DNA of 32,615 nucleotides from an uncultured Erysipelotrichaceae bacterium (GCA_902783265.1 CACZQJ010000001.1:1-32615); one strand, 5' to 3'. Counted from the first letter of the stretch, positions 3,470-20,168 are shown. Program-made: numbers and translations. Notes: generated from the letters alone by a model not told the origin.

Positions 3470-5479
3470 CTAAATATTACGCACTTCATCTAAAACAACC
3501 CTTCCACCTTCTAATTTTAAAAATCTATCAAATAAATCCAAATTATCAAGCCTATGTGAAATAAAAATAATAGTTTTGTCTTCATACTTTTTAAATAGTT
3601 TTTTTAGTATTCGTCTTTCCATATTTACATCAACCTGGCTTAATCCCTCATCAATAATTAAAATTTGAAAATTTGAAAGTGCCCTAGCTAAAGCAATTCT
3701 CTGTCTTTGACCATCAGAAATATTAAAACCTTCTTCTTCCACCACGTCATTATAATCACCTATAAATTCAGGTAGTTCACAAATATTATTATTTTCGATA
3801 TCCATTTTTCTAATATTTAAATTATCAAATATTTTTCCAGTAAACAAAATTTCTTTAGGAGAAATATATAGCACATTTTCAAAATTACTTTTATTACTAT
3901 GAAATTTATCAATTAAAGCCTTGCCACTATAATCATCATAATATCCCTTGATAATTTTAAATAATGTACTCTTGCCAGAACCACTCTTACCGCTAACCAT
4001 CACCTTAGAGCCTAATTTAATACTCAAATTAATATTTTTTAAAATAAAATCTACTTTATTAAAACTATAATTTAAATTATTAACAAAAATATCCCCATTA
4101 ACAGAAACATTATCTTTAACGTAATCATTAATAAAAAGTTCTCCTATATGATTAATAGAGCTTTTAACCCCCTCATATTCAAAATCAAAATTTAAAATAT
4201 TTGCCCAAGAACTATTAAGAATAGTTGAAAGTAAAAATATTGTTATAAAGATCTCCACAGGAAGTCCATTTCTCATATTAAAAACTCCATAAATAATAAT
4301 TAATATTAAAGATAAATTACTAATAATTTCTTTAAATAAAAATTCCATGTTTTTAGTATTTTCTAATTTTTTAGAAAGTTTTAAATAATTAATATATTTA
4401 TTACTAAAATCATTAATTCTTTTTTCCTGCAAATTTAAATTTCTAATTGTCTCATACCCTTTAACACTTTCGGTAATAAAAGAATTAATTAAAGATTTTT
4501 CACGCAAAACTTTTTCCATTAAACAATAATTTTTCTTCTTAAAAGAAATATATAAAACTAAATATAAACTAAAAATAAACATATTAATAACAAATAATCT
4601 AAAATGGATAAAATATAATAAGATAAGCAAAATAATAATTAATGGAATATCAATAAATATTGAAACAGCTACATGGTTAATAACATCTTTAATCAAAAAC
4701 AAATCATTAAAATAACTTATAATTTCACCAGTTGTTTTATTTTTAGCGTGCTTATAAGGAAGCCGAATAATATGTTTAAAAGTATTAATAGAAAGACTTA
4801 TATCGATATTTTGATTTAGTTTTATTAATATTAAATTCCGTATATAGCCAGTAAATGTAAGAATTAAAAATAAAAAGGAAAAAAACAAGATTATTTTAAA
4901 AATAAGAGAACTATTTAAATATGTAATCACTGACTGTATAAAAAACGAAGAAAAAATTGATAAAAGACTTATTATTAAAGAAAAAAAAGATATTAAAAAT
5001 AAGTACTTAATATTTGGCTTTATAAGGTTAAAGATAAAATCAAAAACATTTATTTCCCCCTCCTTAACCAGTTTATGTTTTAAAGTCATAGAGATAATTA
5101 TCCCATCAAAACAAGATAAAAATTCCTTAAATTTTACTTTAACTATTCCTTTAGACGGATCACCTATTATAAGATTTTTCTTCTTAAAATTAATTTTATA
5201 TATTACAACATAATGATTGTAGGAGTGAATATTTATAAGTGCAATACAAGGACATTTTATAGAAGACAAATCATCATACTTGTAACCATCACTATCAAAG
5301 CCAAGTGATTTTAATACCTGAATCATATGATATGCCGTTGTTCCTTTATTATTAGTACAAAGCATATCACAAAGTTTATCCAAGCTTACATAACCACCAT
5401 AATATTTTAATATCATCAAAATACATGCCGGCCCACAATCCTTAAGACCTCTTTGTCTAACCATCGGATACTTTTTCAT
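3470..5479 (-). CDS. Peptidase C39-containing ABC exporter (ComA/SunT-like)
   Basis: N-terminal Q....DCGPAC, HYVV and IGDP (Cys-His-Asp), TM domain, Walker A GKSGSGKST, signature ISDGQRQR, Walker B ILIIDE, H-loop ISHR. Confidence 0.93.
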   Translation of the reverse strand: MKKYPMVRQRGLKDCGPACILMILKYYGGYVSLDKLCDMLCTNNKGTTAYHMIQVLKSLGFDSDGYKYDDLSSIKCPCIALINIHSYNHYVVIYKINFKKKNLIIGDPSKGIVKVKFKEFLSCFDGIIISMTLKHKLVKEGEINVFDFIFNLIKPNIKYLFLISFFSLIISLLSIFSSFFIQSVITYLNSSLIFKIILFFSFLFLILTFTGYIRNLILIKLNQNIDISLSINTFKHIIRLPYKHAKNKTTGEIISYFNDLFLIKDVINHVAVSIFIDIPLIIILLILLYFIHFRLFVINMFIFSLYLVLYISFKKKNYCLMEKVLREKSLINSFITESVKGYETIRNLNLQEKRINDFSNKYINYLKLSKKLENTKNMEFLFKEIISNLSLILIIIYGVFNMRNGLPVEIFITIFLLSTILNSSWANILNFDFEYEGVKSSINHIGELFINDYVKDNVSVNGDIFVNNLNYSFNKVDFILKNINLSIKLGSKVMVSGKSGSGKSTLFKIIKGYYDDYSGKALIDKFHSNKSNFENVLYISPKEILFTGKIFDNLNIRKMDIENNNICELPEFIGDYNDVVEEEGFNISDGQRQRIALARALSNFQILIIDEGLSQVDVNMERRILKKLFKKYEDKTIIFISHRLDNLDLFDRFLKLEGGRVVLDEVRNI

Positions 5480-5641: not shown

Positions 5642-5854
5642 TTAAGCTGCTGGTATCATATTCATTCCAGTACTTTTTCCTTTTGTTATTTCATAAGTAC
5701 TTATTTTAGTATTATCAAATCCGACACACCAGTTTGTTGAAATACCAGCTGTACCATTTATTTGTAAATTGGTACTAAATGCCGCAAAGCCTACTGCCAT
5801 AAATAATACTAATAAAAGAAGACCTACTATTATATAATTTCTTTTATCTCTCAT
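5642..5854 (-). pseudogene. Truncated TasA/CalY-like paralog (70 aa)
   Basis: Same signal peptide and first strand (MAVGFA|AFSTNLQINGTAGISTNW) as the 164-194 aa paralogs, but stops before the PGD...N.GSL core. Confidence 0.6.
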
Positions 5855-7128: not shown

Positions 7129-7623
7129 TTATGCATTTTGAACATAATCAAGTTTAACCGTAAGTGAAGCATTTAACGTCGCAGGTTGGCTAGTAACATC
7201 TTTATCGTAAGAAACCTTAACTGTAAAAGTATGAGTATCAGAAGCTTCCAAAATATCACCTTCATTAATACCACTAGTTTCAAAAATAATTGCTGGATTA
7301 TTAGAATCAGTTAAAGTAATTTTATCAACTTTTGCATCTAAAGTACCACTATTTTTAACTGTTACATCATAGGTCATACTATCACCAGGAGAAACTAAAG
7401 TTGTTTTAAATGTAGCAGAAGTCTTAGTATAAATAGGCGCTGAAGTGTCAGAAGCACTTCCAACCTTGTCTTTACTAACTATATTTATAATTTCAACATC
7501 CCACTTACTATCAATACGAGCAGTTCCATTAATTGTTAAATTAGTACTAAAAGCTGCGAATCCTACCACAAGTAAACATATAATTACAACTAAAATACCG
7601 ATTATTATATATTTCCTTTTCAT
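7129..7623 (-). CDS. TasA/CalY-like secreted fibre subunit with SipW-type signal peptide (164 aa)
   Basis: VGFA|AFSTNLTINGTA..W, core LVSPGDSMTYDVTVKNSGTL, C-terminus LDYVQNA. Confidence 0.7.
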   Translation of the reverse strand: MKRKYIIIGILVVIICLLVVGFAAFSTNLTINGTARIDSKWDVEIINIVSKDKVGSASDTSAPIYTKTSATFKTTLVSPGDSMTYDVTVKNSGTLDAKVDKITLTDSNNPAIIFETSGINEGDILEASDTHTFTVKVSYDKDVTSQPATLNASLTVKLDYVQNA

Positions 7624-7689
7624 AATTTCACTTACTTTCCTAAATATATTTTAACATCTATACACCGTTTTGTAAATAAAAAAGCTCTA

Positions 7690-8340
7690 TTAACTAGAAC
7701 TCTTTTCACTCATAGAAGCCACTTCTAACTTTTTATCATTATGAATAATAACTAAACTTCCTGAAGTTTGATAGCCCAAATCTTCCTTGTAAGTAACTTC
7801 AAAATTAACAACATATGCTTTTTCATCAATAAAATCGCCATATTTGAAAGATTCAGTTTTTACTTTTTCAACATCAACACTAGTAACTATTGGAAGATCT
7901 TGATTTCTATTATCATAAACATTACTCTCAACACTTTTGTACATTGAATCCATCGCATATTTAACAAAATCATCACGATACTTTTCGTACACAAATTGCT
8001 TTCCACCAACATCATTTTTGTTTAATTTATTATCCAAATTAAAGAAATCTGCCACAAACATTTGTCCAACCAAAGTCATATAATCTTCTTCAGAAACTTC
8101 TTTACTGTCTAAAGCTTTTTCTAGTTTTTTAAACAAATCCTTATAATACGAAGTAGCATTTTCTTTTAAAGTATAGCCGTATTCACTAATTGTTGAAATA
8201 TTTTTAATTTCTTTAACAGGTGCTTTTTTAACATTCAATTTTTTATAAGCAAAATATCCGCCAAAAGCAAGTAAACAAATTAAGAAAAGCAACACTAAAA
8301 TTCGGCCAAATCTAATTTTTCTCTTTCTTTTTTTTGCCAT
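7690..8340 (-). CDS. Hypothetical membrane-anchored protein
   Basis: Very basic N-terminus, single TM helix, 216 aa; starts 3 nt after the LTA synthase stop, so probably co-transcribed. Confidence 0.75.
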   Translation of the reverse strand: MAKKRKRKIRFGRILVLLFLICLLAFGGYFAYKKLNVKKAPVKEIKNISTISEYGYTLKENATSYYKDLFKKLEKALDSKEVSEEDYMTLVGQMFVADFFNLDNKLNKNDVGGKQFVYEKYRDDFVKYAMDSMYKSVESNVYDNRNQDLPIVTSVDVEKVKTESFKYGDFIDEKAYVVNFEVTYKEDLGYQTSGSLVIIHNDKKLEVASMSEKSSS

Positions 8341-8343
8341 AAA

Positions 8344-10389
8344 TTATTCTCCCTTTAATACCTTATCAGATTCTTCAGTTTTCTTAATTAAATCATGAAC
8401 AATTATATCATTAGAAACAGCAATTTCTCTTTCAGCTCTTTCACGAAATTTATCAATGTAATCACCCTCTATTACCGCATTCTCATCTAACATAGTTGCC
8501 TGATCATTTTGACTATCATAATATATTCTATCAGTAAGAAAATTACTATTCGGAAAAATTATAAAGTGCTCATTAGTATTAAATACATCATGTCCCAAAG
8601 AGTATTTACTAACCTGAACGCCAAACATATTAGATAACGTTGGATAAACATCATACATTCCCATTGGAAAAGTTAACTCTTTATTAATTTTCTTAGATAT
8701 TTTTTTATCCTTAGTCCAAATTATAAAAGGCACTTTTCTATTTAATTCATAATCATATTTAGTAAATTCTTTATACTCTGGATCATCATCTTTACGTTTA
8801 GAATCAGTCGCCGGATTATAATTATAATAATAATCATACTCTGCTCTTTTAATTTTAGAATCGTGGTCACCATAAATAACTATAACTAAATCATCAAGTA
8901 ATCCCTCATCATCAAGTTCATTAATAAACTCGCCCAAAGCTTCATCCGCATAATGAGCAGTTGTAAAATACTTACCCAAAGTAGTATTCTTCAAATAATT
9001 ATTAGTAACTTCTGAAGTTTCGCCCGTAGTAGTATCTGTTTTCGTATATTTATATGTTAAATCTAAATCAGTTGTATCCTCTAAGCCTTCGAAAGGAGTA
9101 TGGTTCGTAAGCATTAATAATGTACCATAATAACTGCCTTTATCATCTTTAATTTTCTTAATTATTTTACTAGACTGCTTAAAAAATGACTTATCTGATA
9201 GACCCAAACCAATTATATCGTCAAGTTCATAATCTTTATCATAATAATAAAAATTATCATATCCTAACGTCTTATGCATAGCTTCCCTATTCCAATAATT
9301 TCCCTTATTCGCATGCATACTAAATACATAATAATCAGAATTTTTAAAACTTTTTTGAATAGACTCATAATATCTATCATAATAACTTACAAAAACAGTC
9401 CCACTACTAGCTGGAAGTAAAGAAGTACTTAAAGTAAACTCGGTATCACTACTAGTTCCGACACTCTCTTGTGCATAAAAATTAGAAAAATACATTCCCT
9501 CACTAGCAAGTCGCTTTAAATTAGGGGCAACCGCCTTACCATTAATTTCTGTATCAAGTAAATAGTTCATTATACTTTCCGCATGAATAACCAAAACATT
9601 CTTACCCTTAAAAATATCCGTATATTCGTTATCAGATTTTGAAATTTCATATTCTTTATAATATTCCCTAAATTCCTTAGCCGCCTTATCATAACCAAAT
9701 AACGGACTTATTTGCGGTTTTAAACTAGCTATTAAATCATTGCCTTGATATACATAAATACCAAACTTCATAACTACATATTCACGGTTCCATTGCTTAT
9801 AAAGTCTACTAATATCAGTTCCTGTTAAAGTTGAAGCAAAGAAAGCCGTTACAATAACCGCTGCAACCAACACTTTTAAAACTGCAACTTTAACATTCTT
9901 ATCAGCTCTTAAATGCGAATAATAACCGTTTTTTTTAAGTTTGTGATGCAAAAATATAAGCATAATTGGCGCCCACAAATAACAAAAATCCTGAAGATCC
10001 ATAATCGTTTGTAACGCATCACTTACACCAATTATTTGAAAACTTGTTGCTAAAAGTGAAAAAGATGTAAATGAAATATAATTAGTATAATAAATAGAAT
10101 TTATTAGACACACAAGCATCAATATAATTGACCACGTTATATAATATCTAAATCTATATTTTGGTTTAAAAAAATAACCAAAAGATCCAACAAACAAAAT
10201 AAATGCCAAATCTGCAAGGAATGGACTAATACTCATAATCTTTTTTACCGTAAAAGCCCTAAGCAATATCCCATTTATCAAAGATGAAATAACAAAAGCC
10301 GAAAACAAAATATTATTTTTAAAAAAATAAATAACTTCTTTTTTTGTTTTAATTAATAGTTCAACGAATCTATTTACAAAGTTTTTCAT
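8344..10389 (-). CDS. ltaS: LTA synthase family protein (LtaS-like, sulfatase fold)
   Basis: About five N-terminal TM helices, then IHAES, Q...G.SSD.EFT, MHAN...YWNR, LTNHTPF and YGDH motifs. Confidence 0.85.
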   Translation of the reverse strand: MKNFVNRFVELLIKTKKEVIYFFKNNILFSAFVISSLINGILLRAFTVKKIMSISPFLADLAFILFVGSFGYFFKPKYRFRYYITWSIILMLVCLINSIYYTNYISFTSFSLLATSFQIIGVSDALQTIMDLQDFCYLWAPIMLIFLHHKLKKNGYYSHLRADKNVKVAVLKVLVAAVIVTAFFASTLTGTDISRLYKQWNREYVVMKFGIYVYQGNDLIASLKPQISPLFGYDKAAKEFREYYKEYEISKSDNEYTDIFKGKNVLVIHAESIMNYLLDTEINGKAVAPNLKRLASEGMYFSNFYAQESVGTSSDTEFTLSTSLLPASSGTVFVSYYDRYYESIQKSFKNSDYYVFSMHANKGNYWNREAMHKTLGYDNFYYYDKDYELDDIIGLGLSDKSFFKQSSKIIKKIKDDKGSYYGTLLMLTNHTPFEGLEDTTDLDLTYKYTKTDTTTGETSEVTNNYLKNTTLGKYFTTAHYADEALGEFINELDDEGLLDDLVIVIYGDHDSKIKRAEYDYYYNYNPATDSKRKDDDPEYKEFTKYDYELNRKVPFIIWTKDKKISKKINKELTFPMGMYDVYPTLSNMFGVQVSKYSLGHDVFNTNEHFIIFPNSNFLTDRIYYDSQNDQATMLDENAVIEGDYIDKFRERAEREIAVSNDIIVHDLIKKTEESDKVLKGE

Positions 10390-11471: not shown

Positions 11472-13499
11472 TTAATTATTTACCTCTTCTTTATTGCTAC
11501 GCATATCAATAGTTGCTTCATTTATCGCATCATCAATAGTTTTTATTTCATCATTTATCATACTATATCCGATTGCTGCTCCAAATCCATGTGAAAGTTC
11601 TTTAAATTCTTTATTTAACTTACGCATATATGTAACAATTGTTTTTTCATCATGACCAACTGTAAATACTAAAAATTCATTTCCATCAGTTCTGACAAGC
11701 TCACTATCACTAAGCTGATTATTAATTAATATACTAGCACCTTCAATAATAACCTTATCCCCTTCAGCATGGCCAAAATTATCATTAATATATGCTACAT
11801 TATTTAAATCTATAATTATAACCGCTTGTGGGTATACTTCGCTATTGTCCCACTTACTAATATTATCATTTAAGTAATCTCTATTTTTAAGAGATGTCAT
11901 TGAATCAATATAGCGTAGTTTGTCAGCTTTAGACAATTTGAAATCATATGTCTTACGGCGTTTAAAAATTTTAGCAGCTAAAAATATCGTAAACGAAATT
12001 AAAAGAATAACAAGTGCACTTAAAATAGTTTGTAATAAAACAATACTATTATTAGAATTTAAAATACCTATATAACTATCATTTATAACATCATTAGTAT
12101 CTATAAAAGATAAATAGAAATTTAAAAATTCATTAAACACTTTATTACCACTAATATCTCGTGTCAAAAATCCATAATCACGCTCAAAATCCAAAACACC
12201 CAATTTTTTAACATCACTAAATTTAGATCTTACATAATAATCATAAGTATATTCATCAATTGCCGCTATTTTCAAGCCCTTTAAATCATTTAGTAAAGAC
12301 CTAGAATCATCATAAGAATTAACTTTAATGTTATTTTTCTTTAAATAATTTTCTATATAACTATTTTTAACAGTAGAAACAGTCTCGCCATTTAATGAAT
12401 AAATATTATTAATAGTCAAATCAGAATTATCTTTAGTAACTATCACTACTTTATTATTATAAACACCTACAGTATTTAATACATCCATATTAAATTTAGT
12501 TGTACCATTATCACTAGAAATAATATCCAAACCATTCTTATTAAAATCATCAAGAACATTATCAATTGATGAATATCTTTTAAATTCCACTTCCACATTA
12601 GCCATATTAGCAAATTTTTTTATAAATGAATAATTAAGTCCTTTTAAAGAACCATTTACATTCACTTCGAAAGGCGCATTCAAAACAAAACCATATTTAT
12701 ATCTTTTACTTCTAAAACTAGCCTGTTCTTTTTCATCAATATTATTAAAAGTAAAATAACTATCCATTAAATATTTATTCAAAGATTTTTGATATTTTTT
12801 GTTTTTATAATTTTTAAAATATTTAACTAAAATTTTATTTAATTTTTTATTATTTCCTAAAGTAATTACATAATTTTTATTATACTCAGTAATATTATAA
12901 GCAATATTTAAATCATTATTTAAAATTATTTCCAAATAATCTAATTTAGGTAAAACAACACCATCAATGTTTTCGTTTTTAACATCAGTAATCATTTCAT
13001 CTTCGGTTCCATAACCTTTATAAGAAAGATTACTACTGCCATTTAAATAATTACCAACCTTAGTTAAATCATTATTTAAAACCCCAATACGCAAATTTTT
13101 AAGATCCGTAACACTAGTATAGTGTAAATTCTTTTTAGTTACTATAACATAATTATCTTGATATAATAAAATGTCATCCTTAGTATCCTCTTTAATAGCT
13201 AAAGCATATTCAGAGTTTGTTTTAGAAGATTTATTATAAGGTAACTTATTAATTTGTAAACCCGTATCCCTTTCTAAAGAATCAAAAAAATCAAATACAA
13301 TTCCATTACCACTATAGCTAACTATTGGAACATCACTTAAAACAGCAACATCTATTACTTTATCTTTATTATTTTCAATCCATCTTTTTTCAATAACAGT
13401 AAGAGATGTTTTTTTATCTTCATTTGTAAAAAAATATACACCAAAAGCTATAATAATAACAGCTAAAACTGCAATAACAACTTTCCATTTTTTATCCAT
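11472..13499 (-). CDS. Membrane sensor: extracellular solute-binding-like domains plus degenerate GGDEF domain
   Basis: N-terminal TM, two repeats resembling family-3 solute-binding domains, second TM, then DSMTSLKNR, IDLNN..YINDNFGHAEGD and RTDGNEF in place of R.GGDEF. Start placed at MDKKWK after AGGTGG. Confidence 0.8.
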   Translation of the reverse strand: MDKKWKVVIAVLAVIIIAFGVYFFTNEDKKTSLTVIEKRWIENNKDKVIDVAVLSDVPIVSYSGNGIVFDFFDSLERDTGLQINKLPYNKSSKTNSEYALAIKEDTKDDILLYQDNYVIVTKKNLHYTSVTDLKNLRIGVLNNDLTKVGNYLNGSSNLSYKGYGTEDEMITDVKNENIDGVVLPKLDYLEIILNNDLNIAYNITEYNKNYVITLGNNKKLNKILVKYFKNYKNKKYQKSLNKYLMDSYFTFNNIDEKEQASFRSKRYKYGFVLNAPFEVNVNGSLKGLNYSFIKKFANMANVEVEFKRYSSIDNVLDDFNKNGLDIISSDNGTTKFNMDVLNTVGVYNNKVVIVTKDNSDLTINNIYSLNGETVSTVKNSYIENYLKKNNIKVNSYDDSRSLLNDLKGLKIAAIDEYTYDYYVRSKFSDVKKLGVLDFERDYGFLTRDISGNKVFNEFLNFYLSFIDTNDVINDSYIGILNSNNSIVLLQTILSALVILLISFTIFLAAKIFKRRKTYDFKLSKADKLRYIDSMTSLKNRDYLNDNISKWDNSEVYPQAVIIIDLNNVAYINDNFGHAEGDKVIIEGASILINNQLSDSELVRTDGNEFLVFTVGHDEKTIVTYMRKLNKEFKELSHGFGAAIGYSMINDEIKTIDDAINEATIDMRSNKEEVNN

Positions 13500-13959
13500 T
13501 ATTGCCACCTGCAATTCCATAATTTACACTATCACTGCTTTTACTCTTATAACCAATTATTGGATATTGCTCACTTTTTTCATCAGAATCAATAAATATT
13601 TGAATATCATAATATTTTTGATCATCTTTACTTATTTCATTTATAATACTACCTGCAAATTCCTTGGCCTGATTAACGCCAAAATTACTATCTACAGTTA
13701 TTGTAAAATTCAAAATTCTTCCTTCTTTGTTATATTCTATTTTAGACACACTGTCATTGTCTTTTGCTTTATCTTTTATTTTAGATATAACCTTATCAGA
13801 AATTTTATGTTTTTTTTCATCCTTTAACCTATCACCATATTTATTACCATTAAAACTAGGTAATATAAATAACCATGTCATAAGTATTATTAAAATAATA
13901 ACTAAACAAATAACTCCCATAATCATTTGTTTTTTATGTTTTTTAATAAATTTTTTCAT
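13492..13959 (-). CDS. Hypothetical membrane-anchored protein (155 aa)
   Basis: ATG 13959 after GTGGTGA; single N-terminal TM; stop overlaps the start of the GGDEF gene. Confidence 0.7.
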   Translation of the reverse strand: MKKFIKKHKKQMIMGVICLVIILIILMTWLFILPSFNGNKYGDRLKDEKKHKISDKVISKIKDKAKDNDSVSKIEYNKEGRILNFTITVDSNFGVNQAKEFAGSIINEISKDDQKYYDIQIFIDSDEKSEQYPIIGYKSKSSDSVNYGIAGGNNG

Positions 13960-13991: not shown

Positions 13992-14354
13992 TCACTTCAA
14001 ACAAGAAGGAGTACATTCATTAACATAAGCATAAACATATTGATTACTTTCAAGCTTTATTTCTACATACCCCCCTAACATCCCGCCTTTAGGATTTACA
14101 GCCTCATTTTCAATATATCCTTCACTAACTAAGTCTGTCACGCTTACACAACAACTACCACTATCAGGCAAATTTGCCGTATGTTCAACACCCCATTCTT
14201 TTGCTGCTTTTTCTACTATTAATTTTTGGCTTTCATAAGCCCTATCTTTTGAAGCATTAATTATTCCCATAACAGATGGATATGCAATAGTTGAAATCAA
14301 GCCAATAATAACAATTACTACTAATAATTCCACTAATGTAAAACCGTTTTTCAT
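13992..14354 (-). CDS. Type IV pilin-like protein (class III prepilin signal), 120 aa
   Basis: ATG 14354 after AGGTGA: MKNG|FTLVELLVVIVIIGLISTIAYP, with L...GYI motif and four Cys. Confidence 0.88.
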   Translation of the reverse strand: MKNGFTLVELLVVIVIIGLISTIAYPSVMGIINASKDRAYESQKLIVEKAAKEWGVEHTANLPDSGSCCVSVTDLVSEGYIENEAVNPKGGMLGGYVEIKLESNQYVYAYVNECTPSCLK

Positions 14355-14376
14355 ATCTTCACCTACCCTATAATAA

Positions 14377-14405
14377 ATTATAAAATAATTGCCAAAATAA
14401 GTCAA
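14377..14405 (-). promoter_or_regulatory. Sigma-A type promoter for the pilin-GGDEF-yihY operon
   Basis: TTGACT (14405-14400), 17-nt spacer, TATAAT (14382-14377). Confidence 0.6.
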
Positions 14406-14423: not shown

Positions 14424-14451
14424 AAATTAAAAAGCCAAGATAATCTTGGCT
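14424..14451 (-). terminator. Intrinsic terminator after the DUF5305-like gene
   Basis: Minus strand AGCCAAGA-TTA-TCTTGGCT followed by T-rich tail. Confidence 0.65.
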
Positions 14452-14455
14452 AATT

Positions 14456-15580
14456 TTAAATATAAGTTTTTTCTCTATCTTCACCATAATTAATAGTATT
14501 GAAATGATCAAAATCAGATTCTTTAAGTAAAAACCTATAAGCAGTTTTATCATTTAATATTAAGAATACACATTTTGAGTTCTCTTCAATTTCAAAATAT
14601 ATAATTGGTGAATGAAGTTCTTCTTCGATATCAACCATATCAGTAAAGCTCTTGATATTAACAATATCGTATTTATTTAAATCTGGCATATTATGAGTTT
14701 CTGCAATAATATCGCCATATTCCTTCATAATCTTATTAACAGCTAATATATATTCAGATTTTCTAGTAACCGCAAGTAAACTCTTACCAAGTTTTACAAA
14801 TACTACTAATGAACCTAATAACACTAAAGTACCCACAACAGCTAAAGGAATGTTAATTTCTTTATTTTGATTTGCCGTACTATAAACTGTATTACTGCCA
14901 GTATTTACATAATCTGATTTAACTCTTACAGTTTGAACAAGTAAAGGAAATTGTAAACTCATATCATATTTTTCTTGTAAATTTTTCTCAGTTTCACCCT
15001 TAAGACCAGCCGAAATATTAATATTCATAGTCAAATCTACGCGAGCATCAACTGAAAGTCCAAATTGATTTCGGAAATCGGCAAGGACTTGATTATAAGC
15101 ATTATAATCTAAATTAACAACTTTATCAATAATAAATTGTTTTCCAGTACCATTCATTGTTTGCATAGCTAAAATAGGATACTCTTTAGACCAAACATCA
15201 ACCTTTCGTCCATCAGAATCTTCGCCTAATCCTCTAGCAGTAGCTACAATAGAATAATTATAAGTATAATCCAAATCCTCAGTACTGTGGAATTCAAAAT
15301 TTGGTTGAACTTCAACATGATCAATTATTGAGGCAATATACTGCTTATTCATTTCTAAATAAGGAGCCGTAAAAAAGCCGTTATTTTTCAAGTAAACTTT
15401 ATAATCCATTTTAGAATTATAAGTATAAGAATAAAGTTTTTTCTTAGCACTAGCTTCAGGATTTACAGCCTTAACAATAGAAAAAATCGAAACAGCCATT
15501 ACTGCAATAACTATAAGTAGTAAAAAAACTCTAACCCATTGTTTCAAAATTATTTTATTTTCATCTTTTTGTCTTTTCAT
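14456..15580 (-). CDS. DUF5305-like two-TM membrane protein
   Basis: N-terminal TM, beta-rich extracellular region, second TM, cytoplasmic tail EYGDII...IVNIKSFTDMVDIEEELHSPII, which I recall as the DUF5305 C-terminal pattern; 15 nt downstream of the signal peptidase. Confidence 0.65.
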   Translation of the reverse strand: MKRQKDENKIILKQWVRVFLLLIVIAVMAVSIFSIVKAVNPEASAKKKLYSYTYNSKMDYKVYLKNNGFFTAPYLEMNKQYIASIIDHVEVQPNFEFHSTEDLDYTYNYSIVATARGLGEDSDGRKVDVWSKEYPILAMQTMNGTGKQFIIDKVVNLDYNAYNQVLADFRNQFGLSVDARVDLTMNINISAGLKGETEKNLQEKYDMSLQFPLLVQTVRVKSDYVNTGSNTVYSTANQNKEINIPLAVVGTLVLLGSLVVFVKLGKSLLAVTRKSEYILAVNKIMKEYGDIIAETHNMPDLNKYDIVNIKSFTDMVDIEEELHSPIIYFEIEENSKCVFLILNDKTAYRFLLKESDFDHFNTINYGEDREKTYI

Positions 15581-15595
15581 ACTATTCTCCCCTTT

Positions 15596-16738
15596 TTACG
15601 AAATTGCACCACTAAGCCATACTGATGGATAACCAATAAATGGTACAACAAACATTACTTTTCCTTTCACATTTTCAAGATGGGCTTTATCAACATCTAT
15701 CGTATTATTATGATCACCTTTAGTAATAAATAATTTATTACCATAATCATCATTAGTAATCTCAACTATCCTATGGATAACATATTTACTACCGCTTACA
15801 AACTGAATAACATCTCCAACTTGAAGTAGGTCTTTCTCTTGAGTGTTTATTTTTTTAACAACAACCGCATCGCCTCTATTAAATGTTGGTGACATACTAC
15901 CAGACATAACAGCAATAGGTTGATATTTAAATAAACCCATAACAAATCCAGCAAGAAGTCCAATAAAAACAAATACAGGGATATAAACTACTGGACTATA
16001 TTTTGTTCTTTCCCTTTTAGAAAGCCTTTCAGTTCTATTTACATGAACATAATTCATATAAACATAAACAGCAAGCGGCAATGCCACACCTACAAGTGCC
16101 GTTCCAAACCAATCCAAATCAGGGATAATCGGAACAATAAATGGTGGAATTTCAACAAAAGCTCGGTACATAATTGAAAACTTAGCTCCACCTATATAAA
16201 CAAGATAAGTAAGTATTGCGCTTTCAAGTATTGTTGGAATTAACATAGATGAAACATAAGTAAATCCCGTTTGCAAATCAGCAAAATGATTCAAAAAACC
16301 TGAAAAATTAATATTCAAAGCAGCAAACACAATTACAATCAAAACATAATTAATTCGTTTCTTCTTTTCATTTTTAATTAAGGCTTCTCTCACAAATTCC
16401 TGGAAAAACAAAATTCCAACAAATGACCATAAGTTTCTTAATATACTAAATATTTCTTTTGAATATGGTGTTCTCTCAAACCCAAATATCAATCCGAGTA
16501 AAAAATATATAATAATATATATAATAAGTGTGATCAATAAACTTTGAGTTTTATCTCTTTCGCCTTTTACTCTTAAATTCGTATCATGACTTAAATAAAC
16601 TGCAACGCCACATATAATAATCCAAAACATAGGATTAATAAATTCATTATAATATGGTAAATTCATTGGACTTAAGACAAAAGTGTTAAGAAAGAAGTAT
16701 ATAGTAAGAAGACCATAAACTATTAAATTGTTCTTCAT
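15596..16738 (-). CDS. SipW/Sec11-type (S26B) signal peptidase fused to a polytopic membrane domain
   Basis: C-terminal VMSGSMSPTFNRGD, VIHRIV (His general base) and ITKGDHNNTID boxes of ER-type peptidases; about 265 N-terminal residues with about 8 TM helices. Start placed at MKNNLI after AGAGGGG. Confidence 0.85.
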   Translation of the reverse strand: MKNNLIVYGLLTIYFFLNTFVLSPMNLPYYNEFINPMFWIIICGVAVYLSHDTNLRVKGERDKTQSLLITLIIYIIIYFLLGLIFGFERTPYSKEIFSILRNLWSFVGILFFQEFVREALIKNEKKKRINYVLIVIVFAALNINFSGFLNHFADLQTGFTYVSSMLIPTILESAILTYLVYIGGAKFSIMYRAFVEIPPFIVPIIPDLDWFGTALVGVALPLAVYVYMNYVHVNRTERLSKRERTKYSPVVYIPVFVFIGLLAGFVMGLFKYQPIAVMSGSMSPTFNRGDAVVVKKINTQEKDLLQVGDVIQFVSGSKYVIHRIVEITNDDYGNKLFITKGDHNNTIDVDKAHLENVKGKVMFVVPFIGYPSVWLSGAIS

Positions 16739-16862
16739 GTTATAACCCCTCTTATGAATAGTATTTACCACACTATCCACTACTATAATAAATTATAACA
16801 TAACAAAATGTAATTGACAACGATTTTAAAAATTTTTTTCCCATTTTTACACTTTAAAATAA

Positions 16863-16887
16863 GAAAAAGCTTAATTTTAAGCTTTTT
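16863..16887 (-). terminator. Probable terminator overlapping the stop of the 188-aa TasA-like gene
   Basis: Inverted repeat aaaaagctta / taagcttttt. Confidence 0.5.
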
Positions 16888-17443
16888 GAACATAGTTTAA
16901 AGTCATTAATACTGTTTTTTCAAGTTGGGCTGCTGACGGTTGAGTAGTAACAGCAGGATTATAAGTAGCAGTTACTGTAAACGTATCAGTTCCACCATTA
17001 GCATTTAAATCATCACCAACAGCAATTCCTGAATAAGTGTATAATATTGCATCAGTTGGATTAGTTTGCCCCATAGTTGCATCACTGAACGTAATACCAC
17101 CAGGTCCTAACTCAGCATTAATAGTACCACTATTTTCAACAGTAACAGTATAAGTTACAGACTCAGAAGGTGAAAGTAAAATTGCACTAAATTCAGCCGT
17201 ATAATTATCTTTAACCTCATGTTTTATACTTCCAGCAGTAGTATAAGTAGTCTCTCCATTGCTATAAGTGCCCACTGCGGTCGCAGATGGAGTAATTGAT
17301 TTAATATGAACATTCCATGAACTATTAATATTAGCCGTACCATTAATATTTAAATTAGTAGCAAACGCTGCATAACCTACTGCCATAACTAAAACTATTG
17401 CAAGAAGTACTCCTATTAAAATATTTTTATGCCTTGATTCCAT
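16877..17443 (-). CDS. TasA/CalY-like secreted fibre subunit (188 aa)
   Basis: VGYA|AFATNLNINGTA..SSW, core LLSPSESVTYTVTVENSGTI, C-terminus LNYVQKA; directly upstream of the SipW-like gene. Confidence 0.72.
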   Translation of the reverse strand: MESRHKNILIGVLLAIVLVMAVGYAAFATNLNINGTANINSSWNVHIKSITPSATAVGTYSNGETTYTTAGSIKHEVKDNYTAEFSAILLSPSESVTYTVTVENSGTINAELGPGGITFSDATMGQTNPTDAILYTYSGIAVGDDLNANGGTDTFTVTATYNPAVTTQPSAAQLEKTVLMTLNYVQKA

Positions 17444-18265: not shown

Positions 18266-19951
18266 TTACATTGCCTTAGGTATACTAATTCCAAGTAATG
18301 AAAGTAATTTTTTCAAAACTTTATTATTAAATGAAAGAACTATATCATAATCATTCCTGATTTTTTCATCAATCCCGTTCATCTTATTAGCCTCATAAAA
18401 GTTATTAGCTATAACCGCAAGTTCATACAAATAATTAGCAATATAATGTGGTTTTCTTTCTAAAGCTGCCTCATTAATCACATTACTTACATCTAATAGT
18501 TTTAATCTTAAAGCCCTATCTACATCATTATAAATTTCAGAAGAAAGATTTCCATCATTATTAGAAAGAAGTTTATTAATTCTTAAATAACTATATAAAA
18601 TATATGAACCCGTTTTACCATTTACTTCACTAAATTTTTTAATATCAAATATATAATTTCTTGTTAAATCATTTTGAAGATCGGCAAATTTAATAATTGC
18701 ATTTACTATTTTATCCAAATCTTCACTACCCATATTTTTATTTTCTTCTCTTAAATTAATAAACTCATCTTTAACCTCTTTAATTAAAGATTCGAGTTTT
18801 AAAGCTCCTCCTTCACGAGTTTTAAAAGGTTTATTATCAGGGCCATTCACAGTTCCATAACCATAATGTTCCAAACTTCCATCATAAATATTTGCTTTTC
18901 TAGTAGCTCTAAAAACTTGCTTAAAATGTAATGCCTGTCTATTATCAGTAACATATATTATTGCATCAGGATTAAAGTCTTTTTTTCTCTGCCAAATAGT
19001 CCCTAAATCAGAAGTTGCATATAAATAAGCTCCATCACTTTTTTGCAAAATAAGTGGTGGAATATCTATTTTATCATCGTCTTCTTTAACATCTATTATT
19101 TTAGCCCCATCGTCTTCCTTAACAATGCCTTTACTTTCAATAAAAGGAATCATTTCTGAAAATTGTTTATAAGAATCAGACTCACCATACCATAAATCAA
19201 AATGAACATCTAAATATTCGTAAAGCCTTTTAATATCAGCAATTGAAATATCACATATTTTTTTCCACAAAATTTTGTAATTTGAATTTCCATCCTGTAA
19301 ATCTTTAGTTATTTTAAGGCATTTGGCTTTTACATCATCATTTTCTTTACATAAAGCACTCATTTCAGGATAAGTTTTATTTAAATAATCTAAATCAAAT
19401 TCAATATCTTTAAAATCAGTATTAGGAAAATCTCTAATAATGCCATAAATAACTTGTCCCATCTGCGTTCCGATATCACCTAAATGTACATCACCTATTA
19501 CTTTATTTCCTTTAAATTTTAAAATATTATAAATAGCCTGGCCAATAATAGCCGTTCTTAAATGCCCAACATGAAGAGGCTTAGCAACATTAGGACCTCC
19601 ATAATCAATAACAATAGTATTATGTTCTTCTTCTATTCCAAACTTATCTTTATTAATAAGCTCTTTTAGCATTTTATTTATAAATTCATCACTGACGCAA
19701 ATATTTATAAAGCCAGGTTTTGCAAGTGTGACACTATTAAAATATAAAGAAAAATCATCCATTTCATTAATAGTTTTTACAATATCCTCGCCAATTACTA
19801 AAGGTGCTTTATGATATTCTTTAGCAAGGCTAAATAAATTATCACATTGAAAATCAACATTTTCTTCTTTAGACTTAACAACTTTAGCATCTACTTCATA
19901 CCCTAGTTTTTTAAAAGCCTGATTTAAAATATCCTCTAATTTTTCTTGCAT
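18266..19951 (-). CDS. argS: Arginine--tRNA ligase
   Basis: PGFIN, DYGGPNVAKPLHVGHLR (HIGH), KSDGAYLYATSDL, FKTREG and Y..LRI motifs; start MQEKLED at 19951 after GGAGGG. Confidence 0.96.
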   Translation of the reverse strand: MQEKLEDILNQAFKKLGYEVDAKVVKSKEENVDFQCDNLFSLAKEYHKAPLVIGEDIVKTINEMDDFSLYFNSVTLAKPGFINICVSDEFINKMLKELINKDKFGIEEEHNTIVIDYGGPNVAKPLHVGHLRTAIIGQAIYNILKFKGNKVIGDVHLGDIGTQMGQVIYGIIRDFPNTDFKDIEFDLDYLNKTYPEMSALCKENDDVKAKCLKITKDLQDGNSNYKILWKKICDISIADIKRLYEYLDVHFDLWYGESDSYKQFSEMIPFIESKGIVKEDDGAKIIDVKEDDDKIDIPPLILQKSDGAYLYATSDLGTIWQRKKDFNPDAIIYVTDNRQALHFKQVFRATRKANIYDGSLEHYGYGTVNGPDNKPFKTREGGALKLESLIKEVKDEFINLREENKNMGSEDLDKIVNAIIKFADLQNDLTRNYIFDIKKFSEVNGKTGSYILYSYLRINKLLSNNDGNLSSEIYNDVDRALRLKLLDVSNVINEAALERKPHYIANYLYELAVIANNFYEANKMNGIDEKIRNDYDIVLSFNNKVLKKLLSLLGISIPKAM

Positions 19952-19954
19952 ATT

Positions 19955-20168
19955 ATCCCTCCATAAAATTAAAAAAATTCCATAAAATAAGGACGGATAT
20001 TTCCGCGGTGCCACCTTAATTCATAGAATTTCTATGCTCTTAAATCTTTAACGCAGATCTGCGAACAAGCTAAAAAGGTGCGTTCATAAGTAAATACTAT
20101 CAGTTTCCACTAAACACTAACTCACTATAAATATTTAATCTTATTACTATTCCTTCGTCATCACTTTG
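19955..20168 (-). promoter_or_regulatory. T-box riboswitch, Arg specifier CGC
   Basis: Antiterminator AAGGTGGCACCGCGG (about 20017-20003), AGTA motif in stem I, specifier loop GAA-CGC-A with CGC at 20082-20080, F-box-like GCGTTA; upstream of argS. Confidence 0.9.

Follow-up and report, generated by a model that had tools for sequence, protein, structure and literature searches.

A Signal Peptidase I Fused to a Predicted Non-Catalytic CPBP-Fold Membrane Domain Beside Fiber Subunit Genes of an Uncultured Erysipelotrichaceae Bacterium

Introduction

TasA/AbpX-type fibers build biofilm matrices in many bacteria and archaea. In the stretch of DNA analyzed here, 32,615 nucleotides from an uncultured Erysipelotrichaceae bacterium (GCA_902783265.1, CACZQJ010000001.1:1-32615; hereafter the window), genes for fiber subunits of this kind lie beside a gene whose product joins, in one chain, a signal peptidase I (SPase I) to a large membrane domain that precedes it. 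A sequence-only reading of the window had taken the extra region for an apparently dead CPBP (CAAX protease/Abi-like) domain that binds the signal helix of the substrate or serves as an assembly platform, and had suggested a structure search against Rce1/CPBP and a survey of how often the fusion occurs and with which neighbors. From the analysis that followed, we consider it probable, though well short of certain, that a CPBP domain without catalytic function acts here as a scaffold or gate for the peptidase in the same chain, which is dedicated to AbpX/TasA-like subunits, and that the protein is a covalent counterpart of the Staphylococcus aureus pair SpbR-SpsB.

The pairing of a peptidase with a dead-protease domain in one chain, which is conserved across hundreds of lineages, offers a handle on how subunits are released and handed over to the growing fiber. 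It also connects with recent work in which a staphylococcal signal peptidase was found to be controlled by a free CAAX-protease-like protein. Should the fusion and SpbR-SpsB turn out to share one principle, regulation of signal-peptide cleavage would be a general task of pseudo-CPBP proteins.

Domain Architecture and Fold

The fusion protein, 380 amino acids long, is encoded at 15596-16738 on the minus strand in a single open frame without an internal stop. Both the position and the length that had been read from the sequence alone are confirmed: the profile of Bacillus SipW has 189 positions, about half the length found here, and the three motif strings quoted in that reading lie at residues 112, 138, and 174. 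We prefer the ATG at 16738 as the start over a GTG at 16780 that would extend the frame, because a Shine-Dalgarno (SD) sequence (AGAGGGG) precedes the ATG, a promoter-like site lies upstream of it, and Met aligns to position 1 in 116 of 124 relatives. The GTG falls between the -10 box, which ends before it, and the SD.

The C-terminal third of the protein is a signal peptidase of the archaeal/endoplasmic reticulum (ER) type. Residues 251-378 match TIGR02228, the family of archaeal/ER-type signal peptidase I, at 95 bits (cut-off 51.85; 3.9e-27), and PF10502 is matched at 31.3 bits (cut-off 22.9); all 124 relatives have a PF10502 match as well. Membership in the Bacillus SipW equivalog NF046067 does not extend to this protein, which scores 76.2 bits against a cut-off of 190. 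When the family profile was compared with PDB sequences, the nearest solved chains were human SEC11A/C (~1e-22), in agreement with Foldseek. Ser281 and His322 are present in at least 90% of the 124 relatives, and Met282, Arg323, Asp342, and Asp348 are invariant. Because of the profile matches and the conservation of Ser281, His322, Asp342, and Asp348, the peptidase looks active and of the Ser-His (Sec11/SipW) type that had been expected at the C-terminus; the roles of the Ser, His, and Asp residues would be those known from the family.

The region ahead of the peptidase, here called the N-domain, is nearly invisible to sequence searches. Residues 1-250 matched no Pfam or NCBIfam model, with PF02517 (Rce1/CPBP) absent at E ≤ 0.1, and the profile search of PDB sequences returned peptidases only, with nothing for the N-domain. 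A feature search of the ESM Atlas gave unnamed clusters only (0.89-0.90). True CPBP genes were readily detected in the source genome and in 30 of 31 related genomes.

Structure predictions were more informative. Models were made using AlphaFold2 with the 124-row alignment, and reached a predicted local distance difference test score (pLDDT) of 95.2 and a predicted TM-score (pTM) of 0.89 for the whole protein, and a pLDDT of 94.7 for residues 1-255 alone. The modeled N-domain has eight helices (residues 2-25, 30-49, 60-85, 96-122, 128-142, 155-183, 185-201, and 210-236), which bears out the earlier estimate of about eight membrane helices before the peptidase; together with the peptidase anchor helix (249-267) and a C-terminal helix (370-379), the model contains ten. 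Searched with VIA-align against 48,161 representative chains, the N-domain matched Rce1 (4cad_C, Z 12.2) and SpdC (6u0o_A, Z 12.1) best, each over 218 aligned residues (of 248 for SpdC) with a root-mean-square deviation of 4.2, or about 90% of the domain. The next matches were APH-1B (Z 7.0) and chain 4 of 6w6l, the TMCO1 translocon (Z 6.9), which we take to be TMEM147; all the remainder had Z ≤ 6.1. A repeat of the structure search gave Z 12.3 and 12.0 for the top two, 6.1-7.0 for three APH-1 chains, and ≤ 5.2 for unrelated folds. Foldseek ranked SpdC first (probability 0.99, TM-scores 0.55/0.56) and Rce1 eighth (TM-score 0.41), with TM-scores of ≤ 0.22 for all others and a lowest E-value not below 0.37. 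The matches that follow the top two also have a place in this fold group, as the ECOD paper groups APH-1 with Rce1, and TMEM147 was modeled on APH-1 according to the literature. The structure search thus came out as the sequence-only reading had anticipated, and an Rce1/CPBP fold for the modeled N-domain is well supported.

The protein probably enters the membrane with its N-terminus inside and its peptidase outside, since Lys and Arg are concentrated in the loops assigned to the inside (16 in 54 residues, compared to 2 in 55 for the loops assigned to the outside).

Loss of the CPBP Catalytic Residues

Sixteen true CPBPs from related genomes served as the reference for the catalytic motifs; in these, E149, E150, R154, F178, H182, H220, and N224 are invariant. 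In hhalign, the CPBP profile and the N-domain family align over 70 columns (probability 47%, E 2e-4), pairing Q113-E114..R117 with EExxxR, at the cost of a one-residue gap, and F138/N142 with FxxxH. Forced longer alignments, which are of low confidence (probability 35-52%), place R192 and E196 on HxxxN. The motif spacing given in the sequence-only reading was slightly off: the family motif is QExxR, with a variable first Glu, and is one residue shorter than EExxxR. According to the ECOD paper, remote CPBP homologs (APH-1 and PrsW) carry EExxR/QExxR motifs that can be aligned to EEXXXR.

Column counts over the 124 relatives show what has been kept and what has not. E114 is found in 121 and R117 in 120 of them, both predicted to lie near the inner end of helix 4, and N102 (123/124), G82 (123/124), P203 (120/124), and P206 (122/124) are also conserved; 87 relatives still have the motif-2 Phe (F138). 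Position 113, where CPBPs carry their first Glu, varies, with Q in 46 relatives, K in 17, and I in another 17. At position 142, where motif 2 has its His, the relatives have Glu (37), Asp (32), or Asn (22), and this protein has Asn. At position 192, which corresponds to the His of motif 3 in the low-confidence alignment, 73 of the 124 have Arg. Independently of any alignment to CPBPs, His never occurs in more than 46 of the 124 relatives in any N-domain column, and thus stays below half. With position 113 variable, position 142 occupied by Glu, Asp, or Asn, position 192 by Arg, and no column with a majority of His, we regard it as well supported that the canonical Glu/His/His/Asn set has been lost across the family and that motif 1 retains its second Glu and its Arg. 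This is the replacement of one Glu and both His that had been proposed from the single sequence, with the motif-3 His resting on the low-confidence alignment. The N-domain would then be proteolytically inactive by the CPBP mechanism.

The strong conservation of E114, R117, and N102 could also be read the other way, as a sign that the N-domain has kept an enzymatic activity. It might, for instance, be a glutamate-dependent intramembrane protease that uses E114 and the acidic position 142 (Glu or Asp in 69 of the 124 relatives) to dispose of the signal helix after cleavage. The EExxR/QExxR motifs of APH-1 and PrsW speak for this possibility as well. However, the domain has no conserved His, the supposed acidic residue is Asn in this very protein, and the first Glu of motif 1 varies; moreover, mutating the equivalent H, E, and R of SpbR was without effect unless expression fell (PMC12260438). 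We consider a residual enzyme quite improbable, and on the reading of the domain as a non-catalytic scaffold or gate, E114 and R117 would be a structural relic.

Occurrence of the Fusion

The N-domain alone matched 344 proteins in a 90% database, the best 120 of which are all 348-400 amino acids long and all carry PF10502. In a 50% library of 1.84 billion representatives it matched 915 clusters at E ≤ 0.001 (346 at ≤ 1e-10), a number that argues against a chance sequence. For a survey of the fusion, both domains were scored with local profiles in 149 listed representatives of these clusters (P0070 excluded). Both were present in 127 of the 149, and in all 119 of those with at least 360 amino acids. 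Among the other 22, 13 end inside the N-domain, five extend through the anchor helix but end ahead of the catalytic Ser, and four end at most 17 residues past the N-domain.

Genome searches gave the same picture. With one N-domain protein as the query, 11 of the 400 scored genomes in a "phylum" draw gave a match; among these were 9 of 16 other genera from its own family. A profile of the N-domain only, run against 399 genomes of the class, yielded 35 matches in 28 genomes: 33 were strong (E ≤ 1e-32) and lay in frames of 371-410 amino acids, and two were weak and lay in frames of 441 and 495. Within these 399 genomes, no N-domain match occurred in a frame of about 250 amino acids, nor in any frame shorter than 371. 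The fusion is also intact in all of the 13 further loci that we sampled for gene neighborhoods (12 from other genomes, plus a second locus of the source genome). Fusion is the rule in the family, rather than a local artifact whose relatives have separate genes. An assembly or gene-calling error that joined two genes is refuted by this conserved architecture and, given also the uninterrupted frame and the high pTM of the whole-protein model, is almost certainly not the explanation.

A Three-Gene Kit for Surface Fibers

Gene neighborhoods give clues to the substrate. A DUF5305-like gene lies directly downstream of the fusion gene in 12 of the 13 further loci (the exception is L055, with 4.1 kb of downstream sequence), and the gene immediately upstream is subunit-like in 11 of them; of the other two, L045 has its contig end 0.7 kb upstream, and in L057 the subunit profile revealed no such gene. 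The fusion gene is one member of a three-gene kit for TasA/AbpX-like surface fibers that is widespread. In the window, four subunit genes are found within 5 kb upstream of the fusion gene. These and a fifth paralog share a near-identical N-terminus composed of basic residues, about 21 hydrophobic residues ending in G-Y/F-A-A, and then an L-x-I-N-G-T-A strand. A 23-row subunit profile compared with solved chains matched AbpX (9sj2_C, 3.7e-5; 9rhp_A, 1e-3), and TasA only weakly (~0.2); the AbpX alignment places the mature N-terminus just past the A-A-F region.

The source genome also encodes a LepB-type SPase I (5.5e-48), which suggests that the fused enzymes are dedicated rather than housekeeping. 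It has one DUF5305 gene for each fusion gene, the second pair belonging to a diverged module on contig C43 (L053) with genes for a subunit, a fused peptidase, and DUF5305 at 7197-7799, 7853-8992, and 8973-10031, all on the plus strand. The fused peptidase of this module is about 21% identical to that of the window in the N-domain.

In contrast to the subunit and DUF5305 genes, those for a C39 transporter, a prepilin-like protein, a GGDEF protein, argS, and bacA in the vicinity are not conserved neighbors across the 13 loci. This bears on a weaker alternative offered by the sequence-only reading, namely that the N-domain is an Abi-like protein that confers immunity to double-glycine peptides. 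An ABC transporter with a C39 peptidase domain, an exporter of such peptides, is indeed encoded about 10 kb away (3470-5479, minus strand), and some CPBP/Abi proteins act in bacteriocin self-immunity according to entries in a reference list. Across the 13 loci, however, the transporter gave a single weak match (3.5e-8, in one locus), the conserved partners are fiber subunits and DUF5305, and the domain is always fused to the peptidase, so that the idea did not hold up and we regard immunity as a highly improbable function.

A recent preprint from January 2026 (bioRxiv 10.64898/2026.01.04.697558) describes the SPase I encoded in bacterial and archaeal AbpX loci as having ten transmembrane helices and as "structurally distinct," and DUF5305 as a putative accessory subunit. 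The fusion protein resembles that enzyme in being of the TIGR02228 type, in its approximately ten helices, and in adjoining both AbpX-like subunits and DUF5305. The two descriptions differ in that the main text of the preprint counts the helices and leaves the fold unnamed ("CPBP," "CAAX," and "Rce1" occur zero times in it), and the present copy comes from a small-genome uncultured lineage of Bacilli with five subunit paralogs. The architecture has thus already been mentioned in print. The assignment of its extra eight helices to the CPBP fold was not found in literature searches that paired SipW, signal peptidase, or TasA with CPBP or CAAX.

The constancy of DUF5305, the most constant neighbor of all, invites the view that the N-domain is mainly an assembly platform, which docks DUF5305, holds the fiber base, and couples cleavage to donor-strand insertion without recognizing the signal helix. 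The accessory role proposed in the preprint is in line with this, and so is the finding that outer-face segments of the N-domain, beside the catalytic domain, are better conserved than inner ones (1.75 vs. 1.29 bits per column), as the most conserved positions lean to that side. Other dead CPBP-fold proteins are scaffolds as well: SpdC with SagB, going by the PDB title, and APH-1 in gamma-secretase. Against this, DUF5305 is found as well in Tafi loci, beside signal peptidases of the ordinary short form, where the DUF5305 protein TafG is predicted to assist the peptidase TafD (PMC12337348), and hence has no need of an eight-helix domain. We regard a platform role without signal-helix recognition as rather unlikely, although it is the strongest of the competing explanations.

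Proposed Mechanism and Comparison With Known Systems

We take as established that the protein has two domains, that the N-domain is modeled with the CPBP fold and has lost the catalytic residues, and that both the fusion and its gene neighborhood are conserved. On this footing, we propose the following for the scaffold or gate. The fusion protein would act as a dedicated signal peptidase that cleaves the neighboring AbpX/TasA-like subunits at the outer face of the membrane, and this cleavage would free the N-terminal strand used by the subunits for polymerization. The N-domain would pack against the peptidase anchor helix and catalytic domain, and may shape the access of the long signal helix of subunit precursors to the active site. 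Together with the DUF5305 partner, it could limit cleavage to the matching subunits. 

A predicted complex of the fusion protein with residues 1-60 of a subunit scored 0.35, compared to 0.00 for the best control, with contact agreement between runs of at least 48% and partner pLDDT of at least 48. In the benchmark for these predictions, 116 of 157 solved complexes and 2 of 215 mismatched pairs attained the mark, and scores of 0.60 or under, such as this one, accounted for only 18 of the 157 and for both of the mismatches that passed. The result lends weak support to an interaction between fusion protein and subunit, and gives no indication of which domain is touched. Of the pseudo-protease interpretation from which this work started, the CPBP fold and the catalytic loss are supported, and the binding of a signal helix or service as an assembly platform is what the domain may do.

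Several observations weigh against a dead CPBP scaffold or gate. The sequence-profile link to CPBP is marginal (probability 35-52% in hhalign), and at E ≤ 1 a match to PF02517 is possible in at most one of the 124 relatives. VIA-align Z scores below ~13 for helical bundles, which include those for Rce1 and SpdC, may reflect a common arrangement; this caveat is countered by the coverage of about 90%, by the distance of five Z units above unrelated folds, and by the fact that the next matches are CPBP-derived scaffolds. Conservation of N102, E114, and R117 at 97-99% could mean that they have a function beyond structure and that the domain is not dead. In four to nine of the 149 listed representatives, the N-domain is complete and no peptidase domain was detected; these could be unfused forms. 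The predicted complex gave no contacts that place the signal helix on the N-domain. Finally, SpbR inhibits its peptidase, and by analogy a permanently fused inhibitor would perhaps be sensible only as a selective gate.

SpbR of S. aureus is a CAAX-protease-like protein whose motifs (HELYMR, FIYLD, QIVAI) are degenerate, and which inhibits SpsB generally and binds it via the SpsB membrane helix and outer domain (PMC12260438). Compared by these published motifs, the pattern of loss is alike: the first Glu is gone, the second Glu and the Arg are kept, and the His of motif 2 has become an acid. The systems differ in that SpbR and SpsB are separate proteins, whereas both parts are on one chain here, and in that SpsB is a housekeeping enzyme of the Ser-Lys, LepB type, whereas the fused peptidase is of the Ser-His type and dedicated.

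SpdC (LyrA, also of S. aureus; PDB 6u0o), tied with Rce1 as the best structural match, is another non-catalytic CPBP-fold partner of a different enzyme (PMC12260438). Unlike the N-domain, it is unfused and partners the peptidoglycan hydrolase SagB rather than a peptidase, and the identity is 14%. With Rce1/CPBP itself (PDB 4cad), the predicted model shares the eight-helix fold and the order of helices, and still has the second Glu and Arg in motif 1 as well as the motif-2 Phe; the differences are the lack of a Pfam match, the shorter motif 1, and the lack of conservation of the first Glu, both His, and the motif-3 Asn. The matches ranked third and fourth, APH-1 from gamma-secretase and what we take to be TMEM147 from the ER multipass translocon, are CPBP-derived, non-catalytic scaffolds within membrane complexes of the protease or translocon kind, but are eukaryotic, have seven helices, and are much more distant. 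In the SipW-TasA system of Bacillus subtilis, a dedicated Ser-His signal peptidase is likewise encoded next to its own fiber subunit substrate, but SipW has no eight-helix domain, and the subunits in the window are nearer to AbpX than to TasA.

On a broader view, dead CPBP-fold proteins might be an ancient and general class of gating partners for the type I signal peptidases of bacteria and archaea, and SpbR-SpsB would represent the split form. In the fusion, only the long signal helix found in AbpX-type subunits would fit the CPBP cavity, and cleavage and donor-strand polymerization would be coupled at one membrane site. We offer this as a tentative possibility, and a doubtful one as a whole.

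Features of the Locus and Neighboring Genes

Coordinates of the fusion gene, its domains, and its partners are collected in Table 1.

Table 1. Features of the fusion gene and the fiber locus, by position in the window.
Feature	Position	Strand	Basis
CPBP-like::signal peptidase I fusion gene	15596..16738	-	Stop codon 15596-15598
N-domain, residues 1-245: eight membrane helices, predicted Rce1/CPBP fold, no catalytic His	16004..16738	-	Model, structure searches, column counts
QEFVR, residues 113-117, putative relic of CPBP motif 1	16388..16402	-	E114 121/124, R117 120/124, position 113 variable
Peptidase, residues 246-380: anchor helix, archaeal/ER-type SPase I catalytic domain, short C-terminal helix	15599..16003	-	Profile matches, model
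Ser281 codon, predicted nucleophile, motif S-x-S-M	15896..15898	-	Conservation in 124 relatives
His322 codon, predicted general base; Ser-His type, no catalytic Lys motif	15773..15775	-	Conservation; SEC11A/C relatives
DUF5305 gene, putative peptidase accessory subunit	14456..15580	-	PF17231 2e-18; 15 nucleotides downstream of fusion gene, own SD
AbpX/TasA-like fiber subunit, 188 amino acids, presumed substrate	16877..17443	-	Subunit profile
AbpX/TasA-like fiber subunit, 190 amino acids	17568..18140	-	Subunit profile
AbpX/TasA-like fiber subunit, 194 amino acids	20235..20819	-	Subunit profile
AbpX/TasA-like fiber subunit, 190 amino acids	20847..21419	-	Subunit profile
Fifth subunit paralog, 164 amino acids, ~9 kb from fusion gene	7129..7623	-	Subunit profile
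Promoter-like site upstream of fusion gene, TTGTCA-17-TATAAT, 11/12 matches, TG-extended -10	16820-16792	-	Consensus match only
Terminator-like hairpin directly after DUF5305 gene	14433..14451	-	Consensus match only

The four subunit genes near the fusion gene fall into two pairs, separated by a gene for arginyl-tRNA synthetase (argS; 18266-20014, minus strand). Terminator-like hairpins follow two of them, at 20228-20209 after the 20235-20819 gene, upstream of argS, and at 17555-17536 after the 17568-18140 gene. Because argS and these hairpins intervene, the subunit genes probably form several transcription units.

A 70-amino-acid open reading frame at 5645-5854 (minus strand) matches the subunit profile with its first 58 residues (5.7e-20) and is probably the remnant of a truncated subunit gene. 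Adjoining the fifth paralog, 7690-8340 (minus strand) encodes a 216-amino-acid protein with one N-terminal membrane helix and no family match, whose alignment to the subunits is poor (14% identity). Two of the other loci encode larger proteins with a subunit-like domain after the DUF5305 gene (726 amino acids at L046:4340-6517 and 693 at L048:111-2189); these may be tip or anchor proteins, and have no counterpart in the window.

Past the terminator of the peptidase-DUF5305 unit, 13992-14405 (minus strand) encodes a small protein of the prepilin type, whose N-terminus carries a methylation motif (PF07963, 1.1e-8). Close to the fiber locus, 11472-13520 (minus strand) encodes a membrane GGDEF diguanylate cyclase with outer domains that resemble solute-binding proteins, a possible link of cyclic di-GMP to matrix production.

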